Assembly (NCBI GenBank): GCA_020628145.1 | Contig: JAHDFN010000001.1 | Coordinates: 3,278-67,277, forward strand | Source of the DNA: Saprospiraceae bacterium | Lineage (GTDB): Bacteria > Bacteroidota > Bacteroidia > Chitinophagales > Saprospiraceae | Length of the DNA: 64,000 bases | Direction of reading: 5' to 3' | In this document: positions 10,436 through 42,637 of the stretch, piece after piece | Layout of the letters: the number at the start of each line of letters is the position of its first letter | Position numbering within the stretch: the stretch's first letter is position 1 | Program-made: the position numbers and the translations under genes | The notes under the pieces: model-generated | Database searches by the model: none | Seen by the model: the letters and a program-made list of their open reading frames with translations, nothing else | Told to the model about the DNA's origin: nothing

Positions 10436-10440
10436 GCTTT

Positions 10441-12527: not shown

Positions 12528-12624
12528 TAAAATCAAACATCGTCATTAAAGGGAAAGGCCGCCCTGTAAATACTTACAGGAACGGCCACCCCATCATCAA
12601 AAATATTATTACGGTTTTTTTTAA

Positions 12625-12955: not shown

Positions 12956-13318
12956 ATGAAAAAAATAATTACATATTCCACCATCCTGACATTCCTCATT
13001 TTGTCCGGCTGTAAGGAACGACAACTGAAAGGGGCCTTCCAGGGAGCCTGGTATAAGGATGGTTTCGACATGGAGGCATTCACGGTAAGGGGAGACTCTA
13101 TATATTTCCCCGGATTGGATAAGGGATATTTATATGAATTGGATAATGATACGCTTTTTATCCATTTTTCTGAAAAGAAAACCCAGAGCAAAATCCTTAA
13201 ATTCAGCAGTCGGCGTATGACGGTCTGGGACATGAGCATCACAGACGACACTATTCTTTTACAAAGAGAACCTAGTCCGTTTTTAGATTCTATTCCGGCA
13301 GGTGTTGTAGAACGATGA
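12956..13318 (+). CDS. small hypothetical lipoprotein
   Basis: MKKIITYSTILTFLILSGCKE is a signal peptide plus lipobox. Preferred over the overlapping antisense ORF 12778-13251. Confidence 0.55.
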   Translation: MKKIITYSTILTFLILSGCKERQLKGAFQGAWYKDGFDMEAFTVRGDSIYFPGLDKGYLYELDNDTLFIHFSEKKTQSKILKFSSRRMTVWDMSITDDTILLQREPSPFLDSIPAGVVER

Positions 13319-13374
13319 CTTTTATAATCATTTCAACAGCCGTTTGAATTGGGCTATGGCAAAATGGATAATGT

Positions 13375-14175: not shown

Positions 14176-14185
14176 ATGGAAATGA

Positions 14186-28017: not shown

Positions 28018-28052
28018 CATGCCTCCACAAAAGCATAGTACGGATGTCCTAA

Positions 28053-28072
28053 GTAAGAAATCGATTTCTTAC
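28053..28072. promoter_or_regulatory. perfect 20-bp palindrome, probable TetR operator
   Basis: gtaagaaatcgatttcttac is its own reverse complement. It ends 10 nt before the TetR ATG and overlaps the -7 box. Confidence 0.55.
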
Positions 28073-28077
28073 ATTTG
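28070..28077 (+). promoter_or_regulatory. Bacteroidota-type -7 promoter element (TAnnTTTG)
   Basis: tacatttg matches TAnnTTTG. It sits only 5 nt upstream of ATG 28082, implying a very short or absent leader. Confidence 0.4.
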
Positions 28078-28081
28078 TATT

Positions 28082-28711
28082 ATGCGTTCCACCAAGGAAA
28101 AAATACTGGATACTTCCATTGCCTTGTTCAATGAGCGAGGGCTCGTCAATGTCTCCATACGGGATATTGCCAATGAATTAGGCATCAGCCCGGGCAATCT
28201 CACCTATCATTTCAAGAACAAGTCCAATATCATCAATGATATTTACGAACGGATAGTAGGAGAAAGAATAAGCTTGGCCTCCCAAGTAAAACTGATTCCT
28301 TCCTTTGCCAACATCAACGCCATGTTGGAACCGTTATTGGAACTGTTTGAAAAATACCGGTTCTTCTATTTGGACATTTTGGAAGTCCGCCGAGCCTATC
28401 CTGAAATTGCGGGGAAGCATCAATCCCATATCAATTTCCAAATTGATTTCATCAAGGCCCAAATCGATTATTCCGTAGAAAGCGGCAATATGGTTCCGGA
28501 ACCGAGTCGGGGATTCTATGCCCGTATGGCCCACACCGTCTGGCTCATCCTTTCTTTTTGGATGAACCAACAAATCATCCGAGGAAAAGAGGATGCCGAT
28601 TTCAATACGGCACGGACTTCCATGTGGGATATGGTTACTCCATTATTAACCGAAAAGGGCAAAGCCAACTTCGGGATTACACCTTTGAATCAAAAAATTG
28701 ATAAACCATGA
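28082..28711 (+). CDS. TetR/AcrR family transcriptional regulator
   Basis: N-terminal HTH ILDTSIALFNERGLVNVSIRDIANELGISPGNLTYHF. Start at ATG 28082. Confidence 0.9.
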   Translation: MRSTKEKILDTSIALFNERGLVNVSIRDIANELGISPGNLTYHFKNKSNIINDIYERIVGERISLASQVKLIPSFANINAMLEPLLELFEKYRFFYLDILEVRRAYPEIAGKHQSHINFQIDFIKAQIDYSVESGNMVPEPSRGFYARMAHTVWLILSFWMNQQIIRGKEDADFNTARTSMWDMVTPLLTEKGKANFGITPLNQKIDKP

Positions 28712-29352
28712 CAAAGGACAAAAGAAATAAGCTGTTTCTTTCGAACAAGGACATGCCTGAAAACATCATGGACACAAAAGTCTTTCCGGGCTTTTATGTG
28801 ACCAATCCCCATTTGCCTTTTTACATCTATACGCCGATTACCATTGCTATGCTCCTAATTGCCGTTTTATATGTAGAAATGGAATATGCCCAAATATTCA
28901 TTGGCTTGGGTACTTCTCTTTTATTCTGGCCGGTCTTTGAATATTTCATGCATCGTTATCTTTTCCATTGGGAACCCAAGGGGGAATTCGGGAAAAAATT
29001 CATTTATACAATCCATCAGGGACATCATGATTATCCGAATGACGGACGGCTGATGCTAGTGGGGCCGATAGTGAGTCTTCCCGCTTTTCTTTTATTCTGG
29101 GGATTGGGTTATCTCATCGCCGGACATTATACCCATCCATTCATGGCGGGTGTGGCGACCTGTTATATGTTTTATGATTGGCTGCACTTCGCATCCCATC
29201 ATTATAATTATGAGAATCAACTTTTCAGGAAGCTGAAATCCCATCATATGCGTCATCACTATGAGGATAATGATAAGAATTTTGCCTTTACGACATTGAT
29301 TTGGGATATTATCATGCAAACGTTAATCAAGGAAAAGAAAAACAATGGCTGA
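28708..29352 (+). CDS. fatty acid hydroxylase superfamily (sterol-desaturase-like) membrane di-iron oxidase
   Basis: His boxes HRYLFH, HQGHHDY, HFASHH and HHMRHHY between hydrophobic segments. ATGA overlap with the TetR stop. Confidence 0.75.
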   Translation: MTKDKRNKLFLSNKDMPENIMDTKVFPGFYVTNPHLPFYIYTPITIAMLLIAVLYVEMEYAQIFIGLGTSLLFWPVFEYFMHRYLFHWEPKGEFGKKFIYTIHQGHHDYPNDGRLMLVGPIVSLPAFLLFWGLGYLIAGHYTHPFMAGVATCYMFYDWLHFASHHYNYENQLFRKLKSHHMRHHYEDNDKNFAFTTLIWDIIMQTLIKEKKNNG

Positions 29353-31030
29353 AGAATTACAACGTAACCTGAGAACGATTCTGGATTATTTTTATCAATG
29401 GGAACAAGAGAAGGCCGATGAGGTTTTCCTTCGTCAGCCCATTGCCGGCATCTGGCACGAACTGACTTGGAGGGAAGTTGGGGATCAAGCCCGTAGGATG
29501 TGTAGTGCATTACAGCAAATGGGATTCCGAAAAGGCGATCATATCGGTATTTTTTCCAAAAACTGTTGCCATTGGTTCATGGCTGATTTGGCTCTGACGA
29601 TGGGCGGATTTGTGAGTACGCCTTTTTATCCCAATCTGAATGCGGAACAACTCGGAGAGGTTTTGAAACTGAGTGATGCCAAGGCACTTTTTGTCGGAAA
29701 ACTGGATGACTGGGCCGGTTCGAAAGATGGTGTTCCGGAGTATCTCCAAATTATAAAGTTCCCACATTACGAAGGAAACGCATTAGTGGATCGAGGGAAG
29801 GAATGGGATGAATTGATCGGCAAGCATGAACCCATCCAAGGAAATCCGGATATGGATTTGGAGGATTTATTTTCCGTTATTTTCACTTCCGGGACAACGG
29901 GTACGCCCAAGGGTGTGATGTTGAAATATAAATGTCCTGCCCTCCTGATGGAAAATGAAAGGATTCACAATACCCTGGGGATTTTTGATGGTAAGCCGCA
30001 TCATTTCCTATCCTATCTTCCCTTGAATCATATTGCCGAAAGGGTAATCGTAGAGGCGGCAAGTATTCTGACAGGTGCGACGGTTTCCTTTGCACAATCC
30101 TTGGATACGTTTGCCAAAAACCTACAAGAAGTGCAACCGACTATTTTCATGTCGGTTCCCCGATTGTGGTCTAAATTCCGTTTGGGTATTTTGGATAAGT
30201 TACCACAAAAAAGATTGGATTTATTATTAAAGGTTCCGTTTATCAATTCCATTATAAAAAATAAAGTGAGGCAGGGTATCGGATTGAGCCGTGCGAGGGT
30301 CGTGCTGACCGGTGCGGCTCCTACGCCGGACATCCTGAAAGATTGGTATAAGCAATTCGACATTATCCTACAGGAAGTGTATGGGATGACGGAAAATTGT
30401 GCGGGTTGTACACTGATGCCCAAAAATGCGGTCAGGGCCGGAACGGTAGGCAAGCCCTTGCCGAACGTGGAAATAAAAACCGATCCGGAGACGGAGGAAA
30501 TCATTATGCGGAATCCGTGGATGATGGAAGGTTATTATAATGCACCTGAAAAGACGAAAGAAGTAATCCAAGATGGTTGGATCCATACCGGCGATCAGGG
30601 ACATCTGGATGAGGATGGGTATTTACACATTACCGGTCGGGTGAAGGATACTTTCAAATCGGCGAAGGGGAAATATATTATTCCGGCTCCATTGGAATGG
30701 AAATTCGCCAAAAATCCTTTTATCGAAAATATTGCCGTTGTGGGTCTTGGAATTCCACAACCGTTGGCCTTAATTAATTTATCCGAAATCGGAACGGCCT
30801 GCGATAAAACAGAAGTGATTAATAATTTAAAGGAACAATTAAACGAAGTCAATAATCAGCTCGTTGCTTATCAGAAAATCAATTCGATTATTGTCGTGGA
30901 AGAACCGTGGACCATTGAGAATAAAATCCTTACACCGACGATGAAAATCAAAAGGAATGAATTGAATAAAAAATACAGTCAACAATATGAAGACTGGTAC
31001 GAAAAAAAGGAGAATGTAATCTGGGTTTGA
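29345..31030 (+). CDS. AMP-dependent synthetase/ligase (long-chain acyl-CoA synthetase-like)
   Basis: 561 aa. AMP-binding motif FTSGTTGTPKGV, plus YGMTE, TGD and a C-terminal PTMKIKR lysine motif. 8-nt overlap with the upstream gene. Confidence 0.85.
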   Translation: MAEELQRNLRTILDYFYQWEQEKADEVFLRQPIAGIWHELTWREVGDQARRMCSALQQMGFRKGDHIGIFSKNCCHWFMADLALTMGGFVSTPFYPNLNAEQLGEVLKLSDAKALFVGKLDDWAGSKDGVPEYLQIIKFPHYEGNALVDRGKEWDELIGKHEPIQGNPDMDLEDLFSVIFTSGTTGTPKGVMLKYKCPALLMENERIHNTLGIFDGKPHHFLSYLPLNHIAERVIVEAASILTGATVSFAQSLDTFAKNLQEVQPTIFMSVPRLWSKFRLGILDKLPQKRLDLLLKVPFINSIIKNKVRQGIGLSRARVVLTGAAPTPDILKDWYKQFDIILQEVYGMTENCAGCTLMPKNAVRAGTVGKPLPNVEIKTDPETEEIIMRNPWMMEGYYNAPEKTKEVIQDGWIHTGDQGHLDEDGYLHITGRVKDTFKSAKGKYIIPAPLEWKFAKNPFIENIAVVGLGIPQPLALINLSEIGTACDKTEVINNLKEQLNEVNNQLVAYQKINSIIVVEEPWTIENKILTPTMKIKRNELNKKYSQQYEDWYEKKENVIWV

Positions 31031-31036: not shown

Positions 31037-31843
31037 TCACATCCTATACCCGAAAATATTGACTTGCATATCCATTGCATATTTTCCGGTTTTATCCATA
31101 AATGGTATTCTTCGAGAAGATTCGTTTTCGGTGTAATATCGGAATCCGTTTTTATTGAGTACGGCTAGGATTTTTTCCAAATGTTGTTTTCCTCCATTAA
31201 AGGAATGATATTCGATAAAGATATTTTCCACATGTCCCAATGCATCTTCACAATCCGCAATGACTTCCACTTCGGCCCCTTCTATATCTATTTTCAATAA
31301 ATCGATTTTATTTTCTTTTAAAAGCATTTCCTTTAGGCGGATCGTTTTGACGGTTACGGTATTTTTTCCTTCACTGCCGATTGCTCCTCCGTCTGCTCCT
31401 TCGGATGAAAAATCAAGTGTTCCATTTTCTTTCCAAACCGCAGCATTATGCAAGATGATATCCTCTATTTTATTTTTTGTAATATTTTTCTCCAAATATT
31501 CAAAAACATTTGGATCCGGCTCGAAGGCATGTACTGTAGAACCCGGATATTCTTCCTTGAAAAAAATACAACTTGTCCCTACGTTGGCTCCGCAATCGAA
31601 AATTATAGGTTTTTTATTTTGAGTAGAAAAACGATAACTGTATTTACAGAAAATCTCATGGAACTGCCACACGAATGAAGGCCCGTCAGGTAATTGGAAT
31701 AAATAACCTTTTGCTTTTGTTTTCAAGGGAACATATCTTTTTTTGTCGCCATATTGCAACATCAAACGAATAAATGTCCGATAATTCCGATCTGTCAGAA
31801 AATAATACAAGCCTTTGAAAGTGTGATCCAAAAATGTTTTCAT
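31037..31843 (-). CDS. FkbM family methyltransferase
   Basis: FDCGANVGTS SAM-binding motif, FEP, and LLKIDIEGAEVEV, which is typical of FkbM-type methyltransferases. Confidence 0.8.
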   Translation of the reverse strand: MKTFLDHTFKGLYYFLTDRNYRTFIRLMLQYGDKKRYVPLKTKAKGYLFQLPDGPSFVWQFHEIFCKYSYRFSTQNKKPIIFDCGANVGTSCIFFKEEYPGSTVHAFEPDPNVFEYLEKNITKNKIEDIILHNAAVWKENGTLDFSSEGADGGAIGSEGKNTVTVKTIRLKEMLLKENKIDLLKIDIEGAEVEVIADCEDALGHVENIFIEYHSFNGGKQHLEKILAVLNKNGFRYYTENESSRRIPFMDKTGKYAMDMQVNIFGYRM

Positions 31844-33066
31844 TTTTCCTTTCTTGTATATTTTAATTGATAATGATTATCGGTAACATAATTAAATGCC
31901 TTAATATAGCCTTCCATTACGGTATGGACATTTATTTTTTCTTCTATCCATTTTTCAGCGTTTCGTCCCATTTCCTTTGTCCGTTCCGGATCAGATAACA
32001 TATAATCTATTTTCAGGATCAAATCATTCAAATCACCCTCCTTAAAAAATAAACCATTATGCCCATCTTTAATCAAATGTTTTTCAGTTCCATCACAAAC
32101 CGAACAAATTACCGGTAAACCCCAGGCCATTGTTTCATTTAGTGATAGTCCTCCCATCCCTGCCAATACATACACTGAACAGGATTTGAAGTAACGCCCT
32201 AATAATTCGGGATCGTAAATTGCTCCTAGGAATTTCACATTGGAGTCTAACTTTAAATCGGTTGCCATTTTTTTATACTGTTCCAGTAAGGGGCCTTTTC
32301 CTATGATTAATAATTCAATATCGGAATATTTTTCTTTTAATTGATGAACAGCATTAATTAATAGATCCACTCTTTTCCATTCTACCAAGCGTCCAACATG
32401 AAAAATACGCCTAGGGTTTTCAGGAAGAATCTTCGAGAGATCTTTAATTTTATTCTTTTGTTCTTTAATTAATTCCGTATCTATCGAATTATAGGTGATG
32501 AATATTTTATCCTTCCGTACACCATAGCTCCCAAAAACATCATATGCCTCTTCTACGTAATTGACATGTGCATCGAAAGAACGATACAAGTATCCACTAA
32601 TTCTCTTATAAATATGTGCCGCGATGGTTAAGATAGTTTTTTTTAAAAACCCTCCATCACTTTCTCCTACATAATAACCGACAGCATTTTCGTATTTGGG
32701 TAAGCGGAAAGGAATATCCTTGTAGATTAGTTTTATGTTATGCTCCTTTATTTTTTTTCTTACTCTAAAATCATATAGGAAAGAAAAAGCATAGTAAAAA
32801 ATTGTAACAACAATATCGGGTTTTTCTTTCTCTAATACTTCTTCAAATCCTTCGAAACTGAATTTATACAATGATTTTTTTTGAGGCAAAAAATGACAAC
32901 GGAAATTAATTCCATCTCTAGTTTGATGAACACCTTGCCCGATGGAAGATCCGTCGTTTTGTTTAGGGGCAACGACTACGATTTCCAAGCCTTTAATATT
33001 ATTTAATCTGCTCAAGATTAAATTGTAGTAATGTGGTAATCCGGAAAACATAAACAATACTTTCAT
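31840..33066 (-). CDS. glycosyltransferase family 4 (GT-B, Glycos_transf_1)
   Basis: C-terminal GRLVEWKRVDLL...GGLSLNETMAWGLPVICS...G..G motif set (EX7E region). Confidence 0.8.
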   Translation of the reverse strand: MKVLFMFSGLPHYYNLILSRLNNIKGLEIVVVAPKQNDGSSIGQGVHQTRDGINFRCHFLPQKKSLYKFSFEGFEEVLEKEKPDIVVTIFYYAFSFLYDFRVRKKIKEHNIKLIYKDIPFRLPKYENAVGYYVGESDGGFLKKTILTIAAHIYKRISGYLYRSFDAHVNYVEEAYDVFGSYGVRKDKIFITYNSIDTELIKEQKNKIKDLSKILPENPRRIFHVGRLVEWKRVDLLINAVHQLKEKYSDIELLIIGKGPLLEQYKKMATDLKLDSNVKFLGAIYDPELLGRYFKSCSVYVLAGMGGLSLNETMAWGLPVICSVCDGTEKHLIKDGHNGLFFKEGDLNDLILKIDYMLSDPERTKEMGRNAEKWIEEKINVHTVMEGYIKAFNYVTDNHYQLKYTRKEK

Positions 33067-33741
33067 TTATTTTTCGGATTTTGCAAGTGCATCAATAAAC
33101 GCCAAAGGGTCTTTTACCAAGTGACTGTTTTTTCGTAACGTAATGTCATTGTAATTCCACCATTTACTATTCAATAATTTTTCGATTGTTTTTTCATCGA
33201 ATCGATATTTGATTATTGTCGCCGGTATGCCGGCCACAACAGCATAAGGAGGAACGTCTTTCGTCACAATACTACCCGACGCAATAATGGAGCCATGACC
33301 GACTTTCACTCCTGCCATCACCATTGCAGAACTTCCAATTAAAACATCATGACCAATTATTGTTTTCCCCTTATCCTTAACTTCATCATACATATTTTCT
33401 TTTACTATACCCCGACCTTCCCCATATAATGCAGAATTAGTAGAAATAAAATCATGCGGATGAGGACCTAATCCGATTTTCACATAATGTGAAATAGAAC
33501 AGAATTTACCTATGGATTCTGTAAATGGATCAATCCTGACATGATGATTAAACGAGGTATAATCTCCTATTTTTATTGGAGCAAGAATTTCACAACCTTT
33601 GTTAATTATTATTTTTCTTCCCAACTCTGAAGAACGTGGCACGAAGGAATTAATTTGAGATCCGGGATATTTAAACGGAATGATTAAGATCGTATAAATC
33701 TTTTTCATTAATTCTTTAATATGGAAAATCCAGTATTTCAT
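33067..33741 (-). CDS. hexapeptide-repeat O-acetyltransferase (CatB/xenobiotic acyltransferase-like)
   Basis: Left-handed beta-helix repeats IGHDVLIGSSAMVMAGVKVGHGSIIASGSIV followed by PPYAVVAGIPA. Confidence 0.8.
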   Translation of the reverse strand: MKYWIFHIKELMKKIYTILIIPFKYPGSQINSFVPRSSELGRKIIINKGCEILAPIKIGDYTSFNHHVRIDPFTESIGKFCSISHYVKIGLGPHPHDFISTNSALYGEGRGIVKENMYDEVKDKGKTIIGHDVLIGSSAMVMAGVKVGHGSIIASGSIVTKDVPPYAVVAGIPATIIKYRFDEKTIEKLLNSKWWNYNDITLRKNSHLVKDPLAFIDALAKSEK

Positions 33742-35234
33742 TGAACAACATTTTCCAATTCCAAAATAGATTCCAACTGCCCTTTAATTATTACGTCATC
33801 GGTTTCTATGAATTTTTCCTTTTCCTTTTCAAAGTCAGAAGCAATAATCATAGAAATAATCTCACTAGGTTCCAAAGTATATTTAAAGTGCTTTTTATCA
33901 ATATAATCCCTTAGCGTTTCTTCTCCGTATGGATGAACGATAATCGTATGAATATCGAACAACAATGCCTCATAAGCTACAGTGGACCAAAAAGTAATTT
34001 GGATATCCACTACTTCAAAAAGCTTATACAAATTCAAATCATTCGCCCATCGCAAATCAAAATTACTGCAACCTTTATTTTTCAACAAGGCATCCACTTT
34101 AGATTTATCTGCCATTAATTTAGGATGTAGCCGAATGAACCAAATAAAGTCATCATCCGATAAACGAATCGCTTCAGGCAAAGGGCTTTTTTCGAAATCA
34201 TCGAAATACTGAAGCGAAACCAATATTTTATGTTTTTTATTTTTTATTTTTTCTATAAGAGAACTATCCATTGGAGATTTCTTAAAAATATTTTTCAAGT
34301 AAAAATTCATCCAAGGATTCCCTCCCAAAACAGGGGTATGATTATCCGTCTTGTCCGACCACTTAGCAATCTCCCTTAAATTAGACATACCCCACAACCA
34401 AAAATGAGATGGCAATAGTTCATACCCTTCTTTTGAAACATTTGTCCATCCATTATATTTATAATTGAAGATACTCTGTTCTCCATGTTGCACCTCTATA
34501 CTTTTTATATTTAAGTCCCGACAAGCTAGTATTAATCCCATATGTACTTTTGTATAGTAGCAAATGAAAAAAATCGCCTTTGGGCGTATTTCGGAAAAAC
34601 ATTTTTTAAAATATTTCTTATAAGAAAGAATTAGATTTAAATCCTTGGTTAATTTTTTTAAGGAAGCATTAGTTGAAATGTCTTCTTCTTTTAAGAACGA
34701 TAAGAAGTTAGGCCATTTTTTTATCTTTTTCCTTTCAAATGAAAGGGTGTTTTTTATTCTATTTTGAATTAAAATAGAATAAATAGGTGAATTAATTAGT
34801 CGGGAACGATTGTGTCTAGGGTAGAAAAAAACATCGAAAACAGAATATTCCAAAATGGAATATTTTATTCCTTTCGGAATGTGTACGGAAAGACCATCGG
34901 CATATTTACTAAAATATTTTTCATTGTATTTTTCTCTTCGATTGTATCCTCTAGCGACAAAAAGAATGTCTGCTGATATGTATTGATTGAGATTCCCTTT
35001 GCTGTCCTCCCGCTCCATTTTTCGGGAATTCAATATTTGTTGTATAGGGAATAGGATATTCGATTTGGGTTTAGTCTCGATAGGGGAAGTATTTTCTTTT
35101 TTTATTGATGACGTAGTGAAAGAATAAAGTAATCGCAATAAAGGCCAAATGGAAATTCCTTTATATTCGAGTTCGTGAACAGCGAAGCCGGATTCTATTC
35201 TTTGTAATATTCCTATTCTTTCTTTTTCTGTCAT
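33738..35234 (-). CDS. unknown 498-aa protein; candidate CMP-sugar-dependent glycosyltransferase
   Basis: No TM and no signal peptide. Contains IEVQHGE and FIRLHPK motifs. Placed between the sugar-activation genes and the GT/modification genes, with 4-nt overlaps on both sides. Confidence 0.3.
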   Translation of the reverse strand: MTEKERIGILQRIESGFAVHELEYKGISIWPLLRLLYSFTTSSIKKENTSPIETKPKSNILFPIQQILNSRKMEREDSKGNLNQYISADILFVARGYNRREKYNEKYFSKYADGLSVHIPKGIKYSILEYSVFDVFFYPRHNRSRLINSPIYSILIQNRIKNTLSFERKKIKKWPNFLSFLKEEDISTNASLKKLTKDLNLILSYKKYFKKCFSEIRPKAIFFICYYTKVHMGLILACRDLNIKSIEVQHGEQSIFNYKYNGWTNVSKEGYELLPSHFWLWGMSNLREIAKWSDKTDNHTPVLGGNPWMNFYLKNIFKKSPMDSSLIEKIKNKKHKILVSLQYFDDFEKSPLPEAIRLSDDDFIWFIRLHPKLMADKSKVDALLKNKGCSNFDLRWANDLNLYKLFEVVDIQITFWSTVAYEALLFDIHTIIVHPYGEETLRDYIDKKHFKYTLEPSEIISMIIASDFEKEKEKFIETDDVIIKGQLESILELENVVQ

Positions 35235-35857
35235 AAATATTGGTAAGCTTCTTTAAATCGATCCAAATACTGTTCTCCTTTTCCTTTTAGTCTAGAATTA
35301 TTATAACCCCAAAAAAGCAATCCGTTATCTACCGCACTATCATAATCATTGATTGAATCCCCAATCAGAACACATTCATTCGGATTATAATTATATTTCT
35401 CAAGAATTCCGGCAACCAGTTCTGTTTTCGGAGTAGGCGACCCTTGTACGGTAATAAAATATTTAGCCAAGTCTAATTCCTTACATAAAAAATTCAATTC
35501 CTTCCCATCGGAACCAGAGACAATATGCATCGGAAAATTCCGATATTCTTTTTGGATAAAATCGACGGTTTCCAAAATAAGATTTTTCTTATCCGGCAAT
35601 GCCTTTCGCATAATTACCGAATATTTATCTGCCCATTCATTCACTTCTTTATCCGAAATCGATTCCCCTAAAACATTTTCGTAAAAAAAACGAATTTTCA
35701 CATAGCGGGATAATCCACCATTGATTAAGTGGAAACGAATTAACTCCTCTATTTTTTCTTGAGGAAAGTCTTCGAATATTTTTCTAAATCCTAATTCCCG
35801 AACATCGTTAGAATCTAGAATTACTCCATCGAAATCAAAAAAAATATTTTTTATCAT
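35231..35857 (-). CDS. HAD-IA family phosphatase
   Basis: Motif I FFDFDGVILDS, motif II SGS, and motif IV GDSINDYDSA. Confidence 0.8.
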   Translation of the reverse strand: MIKNIFFDFDGVILDSNDVRELGFRKIFEDFPQEKIEELIRFHLINGGLSRYVKIRFFYENVLGESISDKEVNEWADKYSVIMRKALPDKKNLILETVDFIQKEYRNFPMHIVSGSDGKELNFLCKELDLAKYFITVQGSPTPKTELVAGILEKYNYNPNECVLIGDSINDYDSAVDNGLLFWGYNNSRLKGKGEQYLDRFKEAYQYL

Positions 35858-36597
35858 TTCATTTCTTTTTTCAAAGCATCTTCCACTTTCTGAACATCAG
35901 GTGGGTTATCTACCGCCAAAGAGACCTTGGACATCATCACCATTTTCACCGGTATTTCCAAATCGAAAAAACGCAATATTTCAATATCTTCGAATTCTTC
36001 GAATTCTGCTTTAGTCTGCGTCTCTCCATATGCTTTTAATTCATCATAATTAAATGCATAAATACAAACCTGTTTGAGGTATTCGGGATTTTCATTTTTC
36101 TGTGACTTAATTCCGGGTATGGCCAAACGAGACATATAAATCAGATCATCATTCTTATTCACCAATACTTTTGGAATATTCACATCACCCGGGTTTTCTT
36201 CTTCCGTCAAGGGATACATTCCATTAATGACTTTTCCCGGATATTTTTTTTTCAGTTCCGCTACTCTAATAATATCATCAGGACTGACCATCGGTTCATC
36301 TCCTTGAACATTCACATAAATATCAGCTTCAATTTTTTGTGCTGCCTCCCAAAGCCTATCCGTCCCTGTCAATGCAGAAGATGATGTCATGACAACTTGG
36401 TATCCCGCATTTTCAACAATCGTTGCAATTCTATCATCATCGGTGGCAACAAAAGTATTTCCTTTCCCTAATGCCGCTTCCACTTTTTCACAAACGTGAA
36501 CAACCAAAGGTTTTCCTAAAATATGAACCAAGGGTTTTCCGGGAAACCGGGAAGATTGATAACGGGCAGGAATAATTCCGATAATTTTCATATACAA
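35854..36597 (-). CDS. KdsB-family cytidylyltransferase (CMP-3-deoxy-ulosonate synthetase-like)
   Basis: 247 aa. IIPARYQSSRFPGKPL, VATDD, GTDRL and VNVQGDEPM line up with E. coli KdsB motifs. Confidence 0.8.
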   Translation of the reverse strand: MYMKIIGIIPARYQSSRFPGKPLVHILGKPLVVHVCEKVEAALGKGNTFVATDDDRIATIVENAGYQVVMTSSSALTGTDRLWEAAQKIEADIYVNVQGDEPMVSPDDIIRVAELKKKYPGKVINGMYPLTEEENPGDVNIPKVLVNKNDDLIYMSRLAIPGIKSQKNENPEYLKQVCIYAFNYDELKAYGETQTKAEFEEFEDIEILRFFDLEIPVKMVMMSKVSLAVDNPPDVQKVEDALKKEMK

Positions 36598-38214
36598 TTA
36601 AATTAGGGCATAAATTGATGTTTCTTTCAAGTCTCGGTAACGGGTAGGCGTAATGGAACGGAAACGAACCCCATAACCTTCCAATATTTTTTCCAGCGAT
36701 TCGAAAAATGCATCCATTCTTGAATTCATTCCGGCATTTTCAAAACCATCGAAGCCGGCAAGGAAAATATTTTTCGACCCTTTTTTCAATGCATAGGCTA
36801 TCGAAAACATCCCGGCATCATAATCCGGCAAAGAAACATTCTCTTTTTCCAGTTTTAATTCTCCTAAAGAAAAAGGCATTCTATAAATATTTTTTCTTTC
36901 AGAAAAATCATTCGCTATATTTACCTCCCCCGTAATAATCGTAGGATGATCAGAAAAACGATTTAAATAATTTTCCAATTTCATCCGATTGAGAATGACG
37001 ATTTCACGATCTTTCATGTTATCGAAAAAACCGGTATGGTTGCACTCTATAAGAGTAGATTTGTTTTCAATCAGAAATTGCGGAACAATGTCCGAAATTT
37101 TTCGAAGGCTCGGCCCACCTGCTACAATTAAAACCGATTTAATCTTTTCATCCGAATGATAAATAGGAATATTATTAGTCGGATCATCATCATCGGAAAC
37201 AAGAATTTTAAGAATCGTTTCGTCCAGAGCTTCCTTGTCGAATTTAGATCTTTTATCTTCCGGAATACCCGAAAGTATTTCAGAAATCTGAGGAATATTA
37301 AATCTGTTTTCTTGACTTAAGTACTGGCAATAGGATTGATGGATGTTGTTGATACCACTGAGCATGTAAGTATAATTGAATCCCCAATTATATTTTTCCA
37401 TCAAGGGTCGGAAGTAATTATCGATAGAAGGAAGCAATTCATCCGGACGAATATGGGAAGCCTTATATTTTTCACGATACCCTAAGAGAAACTGCTCCAA
37501 AATCAGGTTTCCCGCACCACGTCCCATTCCCATAACCGTTGCATCTACGACATCCACGCCTTCTTCTATCGCAGCAATGGCATTAGCATAAGCTAAACCT
37601 TGATTGTCATGTAAATGAACGCCTGTCAAGCCAGTGAAGTGTTTTCGGATCAGCTTCATTTTCCGTCTCACATCCGAAGGGTAAAATGAGCCATATGAAT
37701 CGGCGATATAAAAAACATCCAATCCTTTTCCTTCCAATAATTCCAATACCCGAACCAGTTCCTCATCGGGTACCATGGAGCCACCCATCAGATTAAAACA
37801 AATCCGGTACCCTTTTTCCTTGAAATAGCGGATAAAACCGGGTGCTGCTCCGGCATGTATGGCCCGGCTGGCTATCCGTACCCAAGAAAAAACAGATTCT
37901 GATTCCGGAAGGACATGTTCATCCAGTAATTCGTAATCCGGTTCTTCGCCATCAATAAATTCCTTGGCATCAATCATGAATGCATACTCACATTGTGAAT
38001 ATTCCCTTACAAAGGAAAGCAACTTTTCATTGGAATATTTGAAAAGCCCATAGAAACGATTGCGATCAGGAGATTTATATCCTAACTCGATTAAATCCAC
38101 ACCGGACTTATTGAGGGAGGCAACCAAATCCTTTGCGGCATCCAAGTCGAAATCCCATTTGTTGTAAAACCCCCCATCCCTGAGGGTACAATCCAATATT
38201 TTTATTTTTTTCAT
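36598..38214 (-). CDS. DRE-TIM metallolyase (HMGL-like aldolase/synthase domain) fused to a DUF115/Maf-like C-terminal domain
   Basis: The N-terminal half has ILDCTLRDGG, DLIELGY and HLHDNQGLAYANAIAAIEEGVDVVDATVMGMGRGAGN. The C-terminal half has VLIVAGGPSL and LAGFDG, as in DUF115 (MAF_flag10/MptE-like). Confidence 0.7.
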   Translation of the reverse strand: MKKIKILDCTLRDGGFYNKWDFDLDAAKDLVASLNKSGVDLIELGYKSPDRNRFYGLFKYSNEKLLSFVREYSQCEYAFMIDAKEFIDGEEPDYELLDEHVLPESESVFSWVRIASRAIHAGAAPGFIRYFKEKGYRICFNLMGGSMVPDEELVRVLELLEGKGLDVFYIADSYGSFYPSDVRRKMKLIRKHFTGLTGVHLHDNQGLAYANAIAAIEEGVDVVDATVMGMGRGAGNLILEQFLLGYREKYKASHIRPDELLPSIDNYFRPLMEKYNWGFNYTYMLSGINNIHQSYCQYLSQENRFNIPQISEILSGIPEDKRSKFDKEALDETILKILVSDDDDPTNNIPIYHSDEKIKSVLIVAGGPSLRKISDIVPQFLIENKSTLIECNHTGFFDNMKDREIVILNRMKLENYLNRFSDHPTIITGEVNIANDFSERKNIYRMPFSLGELKLEKENVSLPDYDAGMFSIAYALKKGSKNIFLAGFDGFENAGMNSRMDAFFESLEKILEGYGVRFRSITPTRYRDLKETSIYALI

Positions 38215-38306
38215 TTGCCGTTCTACTTACAATCACAATATACGGATGCCACTCCTTAATATGGGGACTCTCTTGCACCTAAAATTGAAATAAGAAATAA
38301 AACTAA

Positions 38307-38314
38307 TACTTTTG
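38307..38314 (+). promoter_or_regulatory. candidate -7 promoter element (TAnnTTTG) for the flippase gene
   Basis: tacttttg lies 92 nt upstream of the GTG start, in the divergent spacer. Confidence 0.3.
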
Positions 38315-38405
38315 CAATTGATGTGCCTAAAACTCGTTTTTAACGGAAAAGTATATTTCCATCCATTTCTTTCACTAGGAGACATCAACAACATCAACTT
38401 TTGTA

Positions 38406-39899
38406 GTGGGAATCATCAAACGACAAAGCATCAAGCAATCTCTGGTCACCTACCTGGCAGTAGCCGTAGGTACCTTGAGTTATCTTTTTGTATATACTTT
38501 ATACCTTTCAAAAGAGCAAATAGGATTTATCCGTTTTTTTCAAGATACCGGAATGCTGGTTGTGCCATTTGTTCTGTTGGGTACTAATTATCTAAGTGTA
38601 CGTTTCTTTCCTACTTTCAAGAATGAAGAAAACCAACATAACGGGTTTCTTTCCTTTTTGTTATTCATCCCCCTAATAGGGTACACCATATTCGCCTTCT
38701 GTTTTCTTTTGTCCTACAACTGGATTCTTGAATATTATCGACCTCGTTTTGGGAATTTCGTCCAATACCTGATCTTCATCCTACCGCTTACTTTTTTCAT
38801 AGCTTACTGGACTTTACTATCCAGCTATTGTCTGAATTTCAAAAGGATCGTTGTCCCTGCCATTTTCAACAACCTCTTCATTAAATTGATAATACCCACC
38901 CTGATTTTGATCTATGCTTCCGATCATATCGGTTTCGATGGTGTGGTCTATGGTATTTTGGCCATGCATTTCACCGTATTTCTTGCACTTATAGGTTATT
39001 TAATTTCCTTAGGGCAATGGAGCATGAAAAGTAATCGGAAGATGTTCAAAAAACCTCTGATTAACAAAATGAGGGTTTATGCTACATACAGTTTAATCGG
39101 AGGTCTAGGAAGTATCATAGCCACAAGGATAGATACGTTTATGGTCGGCTCATTATTGGATTTGGATTATACGGGCATCTTCACAATTGCACTAACAATA
39201 GGTGCAGCGATAGAAATTCCCAAAAAAGCCATAACCGGAATAGCTACTCCTATAGTTTCCCAAGCATGGAAAGATAATGATATACCTCAGATTGAAGAAC
39301 TATATAAAAAGACATCACTGGTTCAGTTTATCATCGGTTCCTTATTATTAGTATGTATCTGGTCCTCAATAGATGATTTGTTTTCTATTCTTCCGAATGG
39401 TGAGCAGTATGCCGTAGGAAAGTATGTTGTGTTGATTCTCGGTTTGGCTAAAGTGATAGATATGGTAACAGGAATCAATAACGAAATCATTAGTTATTCC
39501 AAGTACTTCCGCTTTAATTTTTATGCAATCCTGTGCCTAGCTGCATTCAATATTATTACCAACCTTTTATTGATACCTACATTCCTTATCAATGGTGCGG
39601 CTTTGGCGACCTTCAGTTCCTTACTCCTTTATAATCTCTTAAAATTCGGATTTCTATATTTCAAATTGAAAATGCACCCTTTTGGGATGGGAACACTTTG
39701 GGTGCTGGCTTTCGCCCTTATCAGCTATGGTGTAGGGTTTATCATTCCTACCACAGGTTCTGCGTTTCTGGATATTATAATCCGTTCAACAGCCATCATC
39801 ATGGCATTTTCAACAATGATATTAACATCAAGGGTCTCTCCCGATGCAAATGAATTATTCAATCAGATAAAACGGATGTTCCTACCTAATAAGAAATAG
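38406..39899 (+). CDS. MOP-superfamily polysaccharide flippase (Wzx-like)
   Basis: 497 aa with about 12-14 TM segments. GTG start giving MGIIKRQSIKQSL, an N-terminus typical of Bacteroidota polysaccharide biosynthesis proteins. Confidence 0.75.
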   Translation: MGIIKRQSIKQSLVTYLAVAVGTLSYLFVYTLYLSKEQIGFIRFFQDTGMLVVPFVLLGTNYLSVRFFPTFKNEENQHNGFLSFLLFIPLIGYTIFAFCFLLSYNWILEYYRPRFGNFVQYLIFILPLTFFIAYWTLLSSYCLNFKRIVVPAIFNNLFIKLIIPTLILIYASDHIGFDGVVYGILAMHFTVFLALIGYLISLGQWSMKSNRKMFKKPLINKMRVYATYSLIGGLGSIIATRIDTFMVGSLLDLDYTGIFTIALTIGAAIEIPKKAITGIATPIVSQAWKDNDIPQIEELYKKTSLVQFIIGSLLLVCIWSSIDDLFSILPNGEQYAVGKYVVLILGLAKVIDMVTGINNEIISYSKYFRFNFYAILCLAAFNIITNLLLIPTFLINGAALATFSSLLLYNLLKFGFLYFKLKMHPFGMGTLWVLAFALISYGVGFIIPTTGSAFLDIIIRSTAIIMAFSTMILTSRVSPDANELFNQIKRMFLPNKK

Positions 39900-40066: not shown

Positions 40067-42637
40067 TCACTTCCTTTTTTTCTTCTTTCGGGAATCCTTA
40101 TTTTCCTTTTTGGCTGTTTTGGCTACCGTCTTTTTCAAAGGAACTTCTTTTTTCTTTACTTCCGTATCATCAATGGATTCTATTTCAGGCAAACCATTGT
40201 TTTTGAAAAACAAAACCAACCCACCGAAGAAAAGTAAAAGCGTCAACGCAGAAGCCCCCCTCGAAATATTCTCACCCAAATAAAAAGACCGAGGTTCAAA
40301 ACGCATCTCCAACTTATGTTGCCCCGCCGGCAAACGTGCAGCCCTCAAAAGAAAATCCGCTTTGAAGAAAGGATCATAGGGCTTATCATCCAAATACAAA
40401 CTCCATCCTTTTTCAGGCGGATAATATACCTCCGAAAAGACAGCCAGTTTTTCGTTTGAAGCCGAGTATTCATAAACCATTTTATCGGGATGATAGGATG
40501 TCAGTTTGATATAGGCACTGGAATCGGGCTGTAAACGCAAACCTTCCAAAACTCCGGCATGACTCTTTTGTACCAACGCTTTAACTGAAGGATTCAAATT
40601 GGCCAAACCATTCATTTCCGCATCACCATCCGCTACTATTTCATAGCTGTCCACAAACCAGGCATTCCCCAAAGCTTTTGGATTCTTACTGGCTTTTGCC
40701 TGGTTCCCTTCACCTTGAATGATATACTTCGTATTGAACATTCCCAAGATATGCATATTCTGCCCTGGATTGGATAAATATCTTTCAAACAAATCCTGAT
40801 AACGCATCAATTTAGCTGCATGATACCCCCCCATGCTCTTATGGAAAAACGAAGTATTCGCATTGGTAGCAAAATTCCCTGAAGACAAGTCCAACACTCG
40901 ATAATGCAAATCGGCATCCTTTTGAATCTGGGTATCTACCGGCCGGAGGTTGGTTTCTGCCTTCTTCACAATTGAAGGGTCTTCGAATTTATCAGATGTC
41001 AGATATCTTGTATTGAATAACCAGATATCGGCAACTATTAACAAGCCAACACACAGCACAGCCATTAAGGCTTTGATTTTCCCCTTCAGGTATGCCCACA
41101 AGAATCCCGCAGATAATAAGATTAAAACCAATGACCGAATCGCATCTGACCGCAAGAGGCTCGCCCTATCTTCTTTAAAGATTCTTGCCAGTTCCGGCCC
41201 GGCTTTACCATCGTTCTTACCTGTGAAATCCATTCCATAACTTCCCAACAAAATCAACAAGCACAAGCCTCCTACAATTCCGGCAGCATACATCAAGGCT
41301 TTTTGCTTGATTGCCTCATCAATCTCCTTATCAACAAATTTCTGCAACCCCAAAACCGCCAGAATCACAAATGCCAATTGGGCCAGTCCCAATGCCATGG
41401 ATACAGCCCTGAACTTATTGAACATAGGAAAATAATCCACAAGGAAATGATTGAGGAAAAAGTTGCTTCCCCAAGCAATCATTATCGCCAACATCGCAGA
41501 AAGCAATAGCCATATTTTCATCTCACCCTTAACCAAAAACGCTCCCAACACAAAAAGAAAACAGATAATCGCCCCGAAATAAATCCCCATTCCGACAAAG
41601 GGCTGGTTCCCTGTGTACATCATGACTCCTGCCTGCCGATTCGCAGTCCTTCTTGCTTGTTCCTTCGGCATTCCTTGTTGCCTGAACAGGCCTTCCAGTT
41701 TTTCATGGGATTTTGTACCTTCATAGGATTGGGAAGCTCCTCCTCCCATGAATTGAGGAACGAGCAATGTAAATGTTTCACCAATTCCATAACTCCACCC
41801 CCATATATAATCCTTATCCAATCCATCTCCTTTGGAAGCTTTGGCTTTCAACTCGGAACGCCCCCGAATCGTTTCGGAGGTGTATTCATATGTCGGCCAT
41901 AATTTCGAAGTATTACAAAGCACACCTAACAAGGCGGCAATCACCAATCCTCCGGATGCCTTGGCGAAATGAGACCATTTACCCGAACGCACGGCCTTGA
42001 CCAATTCGATAATTCCTAAAACAGCCAAAAGCAGATATGCATAATATGTGATTTGAATGTGATTGGCATAGATATGTAAACAGGTTGCCAATGCAAAAAT
42101 TCCGGCACCCAATAGATATTTTCCCCTGTATGCCAATATCGGCCCTAAATACAATAGGGGCAACAAAGCAAATGTTACCAATTTTGTTGAGTGTCCAGCT
42201 TCCGCTAAATCTATATGATACGATGATATACCATAGGCTATTGCTCCGAATATCGCAATCCTCCAATCCACCTTCATTCCTATAAATAACAAATAACAAC
42301 TGAACATGGCCAACAATATCACATAATGGGACTCGGTAATACTATGCCACAAGAACAAGGCATAGTAAATCGGCTTGGCAAAATTTCCATGTAGTGGATG
42401 ATATATCTGATAAACGGGCATTCCTCCAAAAGCGGAATTCGTCCACTGAGGCGCCTCTCCTGTTTCCTCTTGCACCTTTAGTATTTCAGCTGACATACCA
42501 CGCCCCTTACTATTATCTGACTGAGAGAGAACCTTTCCATCTATAACCGCCGGTTTGAATAAAATAAAACTAACGGCAACAAATAATATATAGGCAATAA
42601 AATGAGGTAAAACCTTTTTCAATAACCCGTTATCCAT
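40067..42637 (-). CDS. YfhO-family polytopic membrane protein (putative lipid-linked-sugar glycosyltransferase) with polybasic tail
   Basis: 856 aa. Many TM segments in the first ~530 aa plus a late TM. Size and topology match Bacteroidota YfhO proteins. C-terminal KKKEVPLKKTVAKTAKKENKDSRKKKKRK. Confidence 0.6.
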   Translation of the reverse strand: MDNGLLKKVLPHFIAYILFVAVSFILFKPAVIDGKVLSQSDNSKGRGMSAEILKVQEETGEAPQWTNSAFGGMPVYQIYHPLHGNFAKPIYYALFLWHSITESHYVILLAMFSCYLLFIGMKVDWRIAIFGAIAYGISSYHIDLAEAGHSTKLVTFALLPLLYLGPILAYRGKYLLGAGIFALATCLHIYANHIQITYYAYLLLAVLGIIELVKAVRSGKWSHFAKASGGLVIAALLGVLCNTSKLWPTYEYTSETIRGRSELKAKASKGDGLDKDYIWGWSYGIGETFTLLVPQFMGGGASQSYEGTKSHEKLEGLFRQQGMPKEQARRTANRQAGVMMYTGNQPFVGMGIYFGAIICFLFVLGAFLVKGEMKIWLLLSAMLAIMIAWGSNFFLNHFLVDYFPMFNKFRAVSMALGLAQLAFVILAVLGLQKFVDKEIDEAIKQKALMYAAGIVGGLCLLILLGSYGMDFTGKNDGKAGPELARIFKEDRASLLRSDAIRSLVLILLSAGFLWAYLKGKIKALMAVLCVGLLIVADIWLFNTRYLTSDKFEDPSIVKKAETNLRPVDTQIQKDADLHYRVLDLSSGNFATNANTSFFHKSMGGYHAAKLMRYQDLFERYLSNPGQNMHILGMFNTKYIIQGEGNQAKASKNPKALGNAWFVDSYEIVADGDAEMNGLANLNPSVKALVQKSHAGVLEGLRLQPDSSAYIKLTSYHPDKMVYEYSASNEKLAVFSEVYYPPEKGWSLYLDDKPYDPFFKADFLLRAARLPAGQHKLEMRFEPRSFYLGENISRGASALTLLLFFGGLVLFFKNNGLPEIESIDDTEVKKKEVPLKKTVAKTAKKENKDSRKKKKRK

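Follow-up and report, generated by a model that had tools for sequence, protein, structure and literature searches.

Can a surface-glycan locus make a sialic-acid-like sugar with neither of the synthases that mark such loci? The question is raised by a seven-gene operon, numbered p1 to p7 here in order of transcription, on the minus strand of a 64,000-nucleotide stretch of a Saprospiraceae bacterium genome (GenBank assembly GCA_020628145.1, contig JAHDFN010000001.1, positions 3,278 to 67,277). We call this whole stretch the window and count coordinates from its first letter. To our knowledge, every known route to sialic-acid-like sugars starts with a phosphoenolpyruvate (PEP)-dependent KdsA or NeuB, and genome mining uses that marker. 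The operon has a DRE-TIM aldolase-like protein (p1) instead, followed by a cytidylyltransferase (p2), a HAD hydrolase (p3) and a glycosyltransferase (p4). We lean, modestly, toward reading p1-p2-p3 as a supply module for a 3-deoxy-2-ulosonic sugar, like sialic acid or 3-deoxy-D-manno-octulosonate (Kdo), activated with cytidine monophosphate (CMP) and used in a surface-glycan island. An earlier note on this DNA had proposed such a pathway, with the DRE-TIM protein replacing KdsA or NeuB. That proposal emerges strengthened, not proven, because the triad is conserved, because p4 homologues elsewhere stand behind NeuB modules, because the partner transferases are of sialyltransferase type and because p1 has a DmpG-type fold.

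The genes that carry the argument are these:

37195 to 38214, minus strand: p1, N-terminal domain (residues 1 to 340), a DmpG-like DRE-TIM class II aldolase (HMGL-like, 103.7 bits)
36598 to 37152, minus strand: p1, C-terminal domain (residues ~355 to 538 plus the stop codon), remotely DUF115/MptE-like, GT42-like and Rossmann-type
35854 to 36597, minus strand: p2, a KdsB/KpsU-like CMP-forming cytidylyltransferase with a TTG start (CTP_transf_3, 142.8 bits)
35231 to 35857, minus strand: p3, a HAD-IA (C1-capped) hydrolase (Hydrolase, 57 bits; HAD_2, 54 bits; TIGR01549 above its cut-off)
33738 to 35234, minus strand: p4, a GT-B glycosyltransferase of 498 amino acids with a sialyltransferase-type HP motif (from an AlphaFold2 model and conserved residues)

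Set against a classical CMP-ulosonic acid locus, the operon has the cytidylyltransferase and the sialyl- or Kdo-type transferase and lacks the KdsA or NeuB synthase. NeuB and DAHP_synth_1 have no match among the seven operon proteins and the flanking genes, and the annotated open reading frames (ORFs) of the window include no kdsA, kdsD, PEP mutase or second kdsB. Within the operon there is no candidate synthase other than p1.

The triad recurs across bacterial phyla and in archaea

Relatives of p1 are abundant. At E ≤ 1e-10, more than 4,500 proteins were found by a word-indexed search, and part of this set may consist of other HMGL-like proteins. The best 120, down to 38% identity, share its length of ~540 amino acids, align over nearly the whole query and come from Bacteroidota, Gammaproteobacteria, Omnitrophota and methanogenic archaea. 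Such relatives are usually labeled "4-hydroxy 2-oxovalerate aldolase" or "aldolase catalytic domain-containing protein". When one genome per species was scanned, at least 595 p1 relatives were confirmed among at least 600 candidate stretches; carriers among the matches listed are Pelagibacteraceae, Magnetospirillum, Shewanella, Colwellia, many Flavobacteriia, Helicobacter, Clostridia, Bacillus and Thermoplasmata.

To count neighbors, ORFs were called and clustered in 85 loci that hold p1 relatives. In 74 of them p1 has a CTP_transf_3 gene in its company, and 91 of the 92 copies lie on the same strand, a median of 3 nucleotides downstream. HAD hydrolases, in three sequence clusters, accompany p1 in about 60 of the 85. 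The orders P1>CYT>HAD or P1>HAD>CYT (CYT, cytidylyltransferase) occur in Bacteroidota, Alpha-, Gamma- and Deltaproteobacteria, Omnitrophota, Clostridia, Helicobacter, Methanomicrobiaceae and Thermoplasmata. Conservation of this neighborhood, which the earlier note had thought worth looking for in Bacteroidota, thus reaches across bacterial phyla and into Archaea, with the phosphatase a frequent but not universal member. Some p1 loci also bear NeuB; these carry NeuB's own NeuA/PseF-type cytidylyltransferase, and therefore p1 is not a NeuB accessory.

Transferases recur behind the triad. All seven members of one cluster (c17) match GT29 (best E 2e-13), and all five of another (c29) match the alpha-2,8-polysialyltransferase family over its full length. 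A third family, of ~610 amino acids (c14), is homologous to p4 over 235 columns that include "QH" and "(R/K)xHP" (hhalign 97%, E 3e-11). A link between p4 and the ~600-amino-acid c35/c36 proteins reached only 85% in hhalign and was not used.

Some loci hold extended modules, ordered P1>HpcH>CYT>HAD or P1>Fer4>HAD>HpcH>CYT, with B12-radical SAM (S-adenosylmethionine) genes. They lie in the ~10 kb around position 10001 of L004/L005, L013, L015, L017, L019, L020, L026, L030, L069 and L080, and their hosts are Omnitrophota, archaea and members of other lineages. Their additions are an HpcH/HpaI aldolase (not in L026 and L069), an Fe-S/LdpA-like protein and a second type of HAD; several have a B12-binding radical SAM protein, and some have the ~610-amino-acid p4-related transferase. 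In some Clostridia, P1>CYT is joined by a PfkB kinase.

Separately, a Colwellia metagenome-assembled genome (MAG; L035, ~10001 to 15500) has two p1-family genes in one operon, P1>HAD>CYT>P1, a possible synthase duplication with divergence. The module is also present in two Magnetospirillum genomes: L008 (sp. UT-4), ordered P1>B12-radical SAM>CYT>DHDPS>HAD, and L043 (a MAG). In Magnetospirillum gryphiswaldense, a 2026 preprint describes alpha-keto-acid sugars that are linked to CMP and have a lengthened backbone (C10), with no genes assigned. We treat the modules in L008 and L043 as a lead toward these sugars, not a link.

Homologues of p4 stand behind NeuB modules

The earlier note had called p4 an orphan. 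It belongs in fact to a large unmodelled family: 9,573 representative clusters were detected at E ≤ 1e-3 in an exhaustive search with a hidden Markov model (HMM), and 2,455 of them remain at E ≤ 1e-30, mostly of ~500 amino acids. A word-indexed search found 12 relatives, and p4 matches no Pfam family. The AlphaFold model of p4 (pLDDT 86, pTM 0.87) has a GT-B fold, and its nearest solved structures, UDP-GlcNAc 2-epimerases and GT-B transferases at TM 0.5 to 0.67, are none of them close. Among 12 close and 50 wider homologues, Q249-H250-G251, R368-x-H370-P371, S417 and E422 are invariant or nearly so.

Within this family, 9 of the 12 close and 34 of the 50 wider homologues match NF046086 in the HP-motif region (best E 3e-16), although all members fall far below the cut-off of 200 bits and p4 itself scores 20.7. 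NF046086 takes its name from BFO_1060, which is orthologous to Tanf_01245 of Tannerella forsythia (PMC5420450). Knockout and complementation showed that Tanf_01245 is required for adding a CMP-activated pseudaminic or legionaminic acid derivative, and it carries sialyltransferase HP and D/E-D/E-G motifs (PMC5420450, from which we also took the HP-motif definition for GT-B sialyltransferase-like enzymes). Like Tanf_01245 and BFO_1060, p4 is a predicted GT-B protein with an HP motif, adjoining a putative CMP-ulosonic acid supply module. The similarity is remote and limited to the nucleotide-binding half; family and N-terminal half differ. Judged by sequence, p4 is a relative and not a member of the BFO_1060 family. 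From its motifs and modelled fold, we propose p4 as a candidate CMP-ulosonic acid transferase.

The genomic company of p4 homologues is more telling. In all four other genomes sampled, the p4 homologue lies directly behind a NeuB-based supply module with its cytidylyltransferase. A Flavobacterium locus (L088) encodes a CTP_transf_3 protein, NeuB, a 248-amino-acid protein, a small HAD phosphatase, the p4 homologue, a hexapeptide acetyltransferase, a GT2 and a GT4 glycosyltransferase. A Flammeovirgaceae locus (L086) has a NeuB fusion, a methyltransferase, a CTP_transf_3 protein, a DHDPS-type aldolase, the p4 homologue, a hexapeptide acetyltransferase, an FkbM protein and a GT4. L087 shares the core of L086 (NeuB fusion, CTP_transf_3 and DHDPS), with a Wzx gene upstream and a faint YfhO-like gene downstream, and in L089 the homologue is part of a legionaminic-acid-type locus. 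In the window, p1-p2-p3 fill the slot of the NeuB module before p4, and what follows (hexapeptide acetyltransferase, GT4, FkbM) is the tailoring set of L086, subsets of which are carried by L087 and L088. This apparent module swap is the strongest argument available that the triad supplies a CMP-ulosonic acid to p4. We consider it likely that the module makes a CMP-ulosonic acid and that p4 uses it.

Two features of these loci were noted in passing. L086 (5054 to 7324) and L087 (6001 to 8250) encode ~750-amino-acid fusions of CBS, NeuB and AP_endonuc_2 (a xylose-isomerase-like TIM barrel), with SAF as well in L087; their supply module, with this fusion and a DHDPS-type aldolase between the cytidylyltransferase and the p4 homologue, looks uncharacterized too. 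Downstream of the glycan locus in L088 (17832 to 18441), five tiny ORFs (four of 46 amino acids, one of 37) recur at 124-nucleotide spacing, resembling an array of tandem repeats more than genes.

The N-terminal domain of p1 groups with pyruvate aldolases

Residues 1 to 300 of p1 match HMGL-like at 103.7 bits (Pfam cut-off 29). The best NCBIfam models are HOA-aldolase models, both below cut-off (NF006049, 126.1 against 229 bits; TIGR03217, 113.9 against 286). In the PDB, p1 matches 3dxi (E 2e-49, 35% identity) and DmpG, 1nvm (E 2e-25). The AlphaFold model, built from 42 homologues, has a pLDDT of 91, and in Foldseek its first 340 residues match 3dxi at a TMt of 0.90 and 1nvm at 0.78 over 344 columns. 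Across 1nvm, 4jn6, 4lrs and 8ih7, p1 aligns over 340 to 350 columns (TMt 0.76 to 0.80), which takes in both the barrel and the helical communication domain.

The catalytic core is conserved. R12, D13, H200 and H202 are invariant among the 42 homologues and align with DmpG R17, D18, H200 and H202, so that p1 has what defines a DRE-TIM metallolyase: the metal ligands (the "xRDG" Asp and "HxH") and the enolate-stabilizing Arg. Its "GMGRGAGN" resembles "GMGAGAGN" of DmpG. By sequence, p1 is a member of the DRE-TIM superfamily that falls outside the DmpG orthologous group. With DmpG/BphI it shares fold, communication domain, metal ligands, enolate-stabilizing Arg and "GxGxGAGN". It differs in scoring below the equivalog cut-offs, in being fused to a nucleotide-binding domain and in lacking a DmpF partner, as no DmpF-like acylating aldehyde dehydrogenase is found in the locus; furthermore, DmpG/BphI serve aromatic catabolism, whereas the context of p1 is biosynthetic and glycan-related. 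The closest solved relative, PDB 3DXI, is the N-terminal domain of a putative aldolase from Bacteroides vulgatus (BVU_2661), with which p1 shares "DCTLRDGGYY.NWDF". That structural-genomics entry, the sole structure for the p1 family, covers the aldolase domain only, its title assigns no function, and we found no paper on it.

The same superfamily includes enzymes of a different chemistry. If p1 were a Claisen-type acyl-CoA synthase (like isopropylmalate, citramalate or homocitrate synthase) or part of a pathway to a nucleotide-activated phosphonate or hydroxy acid, as with FrbC/FrbH, the operon would need another explanation. Apart from superfamily membership, what speaks for this is that the sole full-text co-occurrence of "HMGL-like" and "cytidylyltransferase" concerns phosphonate biosynthesis and that the best NCBIfam match of the acetyltransferase p5, below cut-off, is a phosphonate-associated hexapeptide family. 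The aldolase models, however, score 126 and 114 bits for p1, against at most 88 for the NCBIfam isopropylmalate, homocitrate and citramalate synthase models, and the DmpG fold match extends through the communication domain. Condensing DRE-TIM synthases carry "GERAGN" with a catalytic Glu at the position where p1 has "GRGAGN" and no such Glu. PEP mutase is seen neither in the window nor as a recurrent neighbor, and the partner transferases are sialyltransferase-like. We therefore rejected phosphonate or Claisen-type chemistry as the primary interpretation (given the aldolase models, the DmpG fold and the unseen PEP mutase), and regard it as highly improbable. The earlier note's side branch, a hydroxy-acid sugar built from an acyl-CoA, becomes the less likely one.

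Sequence and modelled fold thus support grouping p1 with the pyruvate aldolases (DmpG) and not with the acyl-CoA condensing members, and that p1 is a pyruvate-dependent synthase seems to us somewhat probable.

The cytidylyltransferase p2 and the known sugars

As the triad's CYTIDYLYLTRANSFERASE, p2 scores 142.8 bits on PF02348 (CTP_transf_3) and keeps the metal/CTP motifs "PARxxSxRxPGK", "QGDEP" and "VD". It passes the NCBIfam KdsB subfamily model NF009905 (280 bits, cut-off 255) and misses the kdsB equivalog TIGR00466 (141.9 against 155.2). Its closest solved relative is the capsule enzyme K-CKS/KpsU of Escherichia coli (1gq9, 150 bits), with the lipopolysaccharide (LPS) enzyme KdsB at ~108 bits. 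Membership of p2 in the KdsB/KpsU family is therefore assigned at subfamily level only, from these profile scores.

The pocket motifs differ. Where KdsB/KpsU of E. coli and Haemophilus influenzae share "R/K-H-(L/V/I)-G-I-Y" and "LEQLR", p2 has "LKQVCIY" and "IEILR". Among 72 cytidylyltransferases adjacent to p1, 45 are KdsB-like and 27 belong to another CTP_transf_3 subtype. The 45 have a median identity of 44% to p2 and 34% to E. coli KdsB; they keep the His aligned with KdsB H181 in only two cases and the Gln of "EQLR" in none, and they retain the adjacent Glu (43/45) and Arg (45/45). Two residues, Q98 and Y185, contact O5 of Kdo in a modelling study on PDB 3K8D (PMC12199768). Q98 is conserved in p2, and Y185 in p2 and in 27 of the 45 KdsB-like enzymes. 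We found no source confirming a Kdo contact by KdsB His181 or by the "EQLR" Gln; Q98 and Y185 were the contacts named. The substitutions in the p1-linked enzymes are a hint, not proof, of altered sugar specificity.

These data bear on two simpler explanations. One is that p2 is a KpsU-like CMP-Kdo synthetase drawing on an ordinary KdsA/KdsC Kdo pool, that p4 is a Kdo transferase, and that p1 and p3 have no part in the backbone, making for example a small hydroxy-acid substituent or a salvage intermediate. The KpsU and NF009905 scores fit this, the Kdo O5 contacts are kept in p2, and Bacteroidota are expected to have the Kdo pathway. Yet p1 is paired with a cytidylyltransferase in most of the loci examined, including those of a methanogen, a Thermoplasmata archaeon and Clostridia, in which one would not expect an LPS Kdo pool. 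Furthermore, the partner is not KdsB-like in 27 loci, the KdsB/KpsU His and Gln are replaced almost throughout the p1-linked group, and p2 misses the kdsB equivalog. A Kdo-pool origin for the sugar is accordingly unlikely. The Kdo pathway (KdsA, KdsC and KdsB or KpsU) does share its synthase-phosphatase-cytidylyltransferase logic with the triad, and p2 is a clear KdsB/KpsU homologue. The differences are a PEP-dependent KdsA there and a DRE-TIM aldolase-like protein here, a HAD-IIIA phosphatase (KdsC) as against the capped HAD-IA p3, distinct pocket motifs in the cytidylyltransferase, and the presence of the p1 module in archaea and Gram-positive lineages too.

The other explanation grants that the triad works as we propose and has it make a familiar ulosonic acid: Kdo from arabinose-5-phosphate, 2-keto-3-deoxynononic acid (Kdn) from mannose-6-phosphate or N-acetylneuraminic acid (Neu5Ac) from N-acetylmannosamine-6-phosphate (ManNAc-6-P). 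The KdsB-like p2 with its preserved O5-contact residues would suit such a product, as would downstream partners from families that handle sialic acids, nonulosonic acids (NulOs) or Kdo. Genes for UDP-GlcNAc 2-epimerase and PfkB kinase near some triads would fit the ManNAc-6-P route, and the operon in the window has no sugar-nucleotide tailoring genes. Set against this are the systematic pocket substitutions relative to true CMP-Kdo synthetases and the fact that Bacteroidota would be duplicating a pathway they are expected to own; moreover, CMP-ulosonic acids of unassigned structure exist, as in the genus Magnetospirillum, within which the module is found. A known end product is rather doubtful, though it has some chance.

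The phosphatase p3

The HAD motifs of p3 are intact (motif I "FDFDGV", motif IV "GDSINDYD"), and PF00702 and PF13419 are above their cut-offs. Its subfamily is IA and not the IIIA type of KdsC (TIGR01670, 23.5 against 106.95 bits). We propose it as a candidate sugar-acid phosphate phosphatase.

The C-terminal domain of p1

Residues ~355 to 538 of p1 make up an alpha/beta domain of their own. The earlier note had described p1 as a fusion with DUF115. This was right in kind, but the relationship is remote and below threshold for the window protein, which scores 16.5 bits on PF01973 (DUF115/MptE-like) as a whole and 20.4 bits for the domain alone, against a cut-off of 34.6. PF01973 matches 12 of 20 p1 homologues at E ≤ 0.1 (best E 8.5e-7). 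A profile of the domain from 20 homologues has five matches in the PDB, all of them GT42 CMP-sialic acid sialyltransferases and all weak (E 0.1 to 0.5), through an alignment of ~27 residues on the motif "GMFA..AL..IYLAGFDG". G367, E390, C391, N392, N409, G487 and G490 are invariant among 42 homologues. In Foldseek, the match list for the full p1 model was filled by TIM barrels, and the C-terminal fold is not visible there.

The remote DUF115 and GT42 relationships suggest a nucleotide or CMP-sugar binding site, most likely for a cytidine nucleotide or a CMP-sugar; the sensing of CMP-sugar, transfer and kinase activity are candidate roles. Our guess is an end-product sensor, by analogy with the regulatory C-terminal domains of other DRE-TIM synthases and with the feedback of CMP-Neu5Ac on GNE.

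Transfer would make p1 bifunctional, a synthase joined to a Maf/Cst-type transferase, with p4 adding a second copy or a different residue. That all PDB matches are to GT42 sialyltransferases and that over half of the homologues tested match PF01973 are in keeping with this, since the Maf flagellin NulO transferases belong to the DUF115 family (PF01973). The p1 motifs "GGPSL", "ECN" and "AGFDG" also parallel motifs of Cst-II, and many triad loci have no recognizable p4-like gene. The matches, however, are all sub-threshold (E 0.1 to 0.5, and 16 to 20 bits for the window protein), and the domain, at ~185 amino acids, is shorter than GT42 enzymes. Nor was a catalytic base seen in the p1 family, whose alignment with GT42 spans only ~27 residues. 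In GT42 enzymes this base is Cst-II His188; downstream of "AGFDG", not one His or Asp is invariant among the 42 p1 homologues, and the Asp of "GFDG" itself varies. Dedicated sialyltransferase-type genes, furthermore, stand beside the triad in many loci. A bifunctional p1 is for these reasons improbable.

A proposed route and its weak points

We infer each chemical step and the identity of the sugar from the gene content, folds, catalytic residues and neighborhoods described above. The N-terminal domain of p1 would bind pyruvate on a divalent metal, form its enolate and join this to an aldose phosphate of central metabolism, so that a 3-deoxy-2-ulosonate phosphate results. Removal of the phosphate by p3 would make the reversible aldol step effectively irreversible, and p2 would couple the anomeric hydroxyl of the ulosonate to CMP. 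Next, p4 would move the sugar onto a lipid-linked acceptor, to which the GT4 protein p6 would add a residue as well. The glycan would be O-acetylated by p5 and O-methylated by p7, flipped by Wzx and used outside the membrane by a YfhO-like protein.

The steps match those of the animal Neu5Ac/Kdn 9-phosphate pathway (NANS-NANP-CMAS) and of NeuB-based NulO pathways: an aldose or aldose phosphate is joined to a C3 unit, dephosphorylated, activated with CMP and transferred. Bacteroides thetaiotaomicron has a Kdn-9-phosphate synthase/phosphatase. Those pathways employ HP-motif, GT29 or GT38-type transferases, and p4 homologues lie behind such modules. They differ in using PEP on an enzyme of the NeuB fold, where p1, unrelated in sequence, is predicted to use pyruvate on a metal-dependent class II aldolase, and the extra DUF115-like domain is found only on the p1 side.

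Several observations weigh against the supply-module reading. Since it passes the KdsB subfamily model, p2 might make plain CMP-Kdo. The HAD gene is absent from about a quarter of p1 loci, including that of a 55%-identical relative ordered P1>CYT>p4>Hexapep (ERR4592245 contig), so that a phosphorylated intermediate is not certain. DmpG His21 aligns with Phe16 of p1 (Tyr in at least 90% of homologues) and the Tyr of its "GVY" with the invariant His292; His21 and Tyr291 are the acid/base pair of DmpG. As both positions are changed in kind, the catalytic mechanism of p1 may differ. A second aldolase (HpcH/HpaI or DHDPS), the Fe-S protein and the B12-radical SAM protein of some modules may point to chemistry beyond one aldol step. 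The weakest step of the explanation is the role of the C-terminal domain, a guess.

That this is a third, evolutionarily independent route to CMP-ulosonic acids, yielding an undescribed monosaccharide, with extended modules leading to more elaborate or longer-chain sugars and possibly to the Magnetospirillum C10 keto-acids, is a tentative idea that we hold as possible. A full-text literature search found no characterization of the p1 family in a glycan context, and two papers on flagellin glycosylation islands make no mention of a p1-family gene. The earlier note knew of no characterized pathway with this gene set. A tie between p1 and the N-glyceroyl modification of Tannerella pseudaminic acid was considered and dropped, as the account of that locus names neither an aldolase nor a phosphatase.

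Extent of the locus, tailoring and export

The rest of the operon and its surroundings are as follows:

33067 to 33741, minus strand: p5, a hexapeptide (left-handed beta-helix) acetyltransferase, Vat/CatB-like (Hexapep, 50.6 bits)
31840 to 33066, minus strand: p6, a GT4 retaining glycosyltransferase (Glycos_transf_1, 122 bits; Glyco_trans_1_4, 92 bits)
31037 to 31843, minus strand: p7, an FkbM-family SAM methyltransferase (Methyltransf_21, 86 bits; TIGR01444, 115 bits, cut-off 37.7)
38215 to 38405: divergent intergenic region of 191 nucleotides between p1 and the flippase gene, presumed to hold the promoters of both units
38406 to 39899, plus strand: Wzx-type polysaccharide flippase of the MOP superfamily (Polysacc_synt, 33.6 bits, cut-off 28.2; ~11 hydrophobic segments)
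40067 to 42637, minus strand: YfhO-like large polytopic membrane protein (YfhO, 30.1 bits, cut-off 28.5, C-terminal part only; ~12 hydrophobic segments)

All coordinates of the seven minus-strand ORFs and their junctions, as first described, were reproduced in the ORF table, where the gaps from p7 to p1 are -4, 0, -4, -4, -4 and 0 nucleotides. Domain assignments were likewise essentially right by Pfam and NCBIfam, with qualifications for the DUF115 part of p1 and for the "orphan" p4. The locus is nevertheless larger than had been claimed: the flippase and YfhO-like genes belong to it. All six operon junctions measure 0 nucleotides or less. Of the 31 other junctions in the window between genes on one strand, 7 do so, which makes a run of six improbable by chance (naive p ~1e-4). 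The 0-nucleotide junction of p1 and p2 rests on the TTG start of p2; an ATG two codons downstream (36591) would leave a gap of 6 nucleotides. The exact TTG-start sequence of p2 is absent from the protein collection, which holds p1, p4 and the YfhO-like protein, and the public gene call of p2 probably starts at that ATG. We found no convincing minus-strand terminator inside the block, which has 8 terminator-like sites against 7.3 expected from shuffles.

Wzx and p1 are also divergently arranged in L090 and the ERR4592245 contig, which are the two closest relatives, and the position of Wzx is also conserved in L087. The intergenic region holds TACTTTTG at 38307 to 38314 on the plus strand, which fits the Bacteroidota -7 consensus TAnnTTTG; a sigma-70 promoter scan is uninformative for Bacteroidota.

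For the tailoring genes, p5 scores below cut-off on the NCBIfam CatB, Vat and phn_thr-fam models, and in L086, L088 and the ERR4592245 contig the p4 homologue is likewise followed by a gene of the hexapeptide type. GT4 genes follow the p4 homologues in L086 to L088, and an FkbM gene does so in L086. O-acetylation of the glycan by p5 and O-methylation by p7 are both probable. YfhO-like genes flank related loci (L001, 21203 to the end; L087, 19076 to the end, faint; L028, 14078 to 16489). The L028 protein is 36% identical over 772 amino acids, and full-length YfhO-like proteins have 825 to 856 amino acids. This protein is a probable GT-C-type transferase or polymerase outside the cytoplasmic membrane; beside Bacteroidota ulosonic acid loci more broadly, GT-C transferase, polymerase and ligase are the candidate roles.

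The block lies among core-chromosome genes (MreB/MreC, PBP2, Obg, FtsH and EPSP synthase), and the window also encodes an Omp28 lipoprotein and a protein with a type IX secretion system (T9SS) tail near it, both signs of Bacteroidota. G+C content falls to 0.33 to 0.34 at 32000 to 36000 (p3 to p6), compared with ~0.40 to 0.45 in the rest and ~0.41 for the whole window. Low G+C amid core genes suggests a horizontally exchanged, variable glycan island.

Other genes of the window were noted in passing. On the plus strand, a TetR regulator, a fatty-acid-hydroxylase-family membrane protein and an acyl-CoA ligase (28019 to 31030; junctions -4 and -8 nucleotides) converge on the glycan operon, with 6 nucleotides between the stop codons (31030 and 31037). 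A 1,254-amino-acid fused hydantoinase/oxoprolinase A+B protein (6329 to 10093) and a Ca2+-dependent PI-PLC-like protein (11373 to 12527) are unrelated to the glycan finding.

Significance

Host recognition, susceptibility to phages and the antigenicity of vaccines are all shaped by sugars such as Kdo, Kdn and neuraminic, pseudaminic and legionaminic acid. From sequence comparison and structural models, p1-p2-p3 probably represent a widespread, unannotated route to CMP-ulosonic acids that is independent of NeuB and KdsA. If so, a large set of glycan loci would at present escape genome mining or carry the wrong annotation, "4-hydroxy-2-oxovalerate aldolase" plus "KdsB". The module would also be a testable candidate for CMP-ulosonic acids that have been detected by mass spectrometry and lack a gene assignment, and a pyruvate-based biocatalyst for ulosonic acid synthesis. 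The p4 family, with more than 9,500 clusters and no Pfam model, would gain the label of CMP-ulosonic acid transferases.

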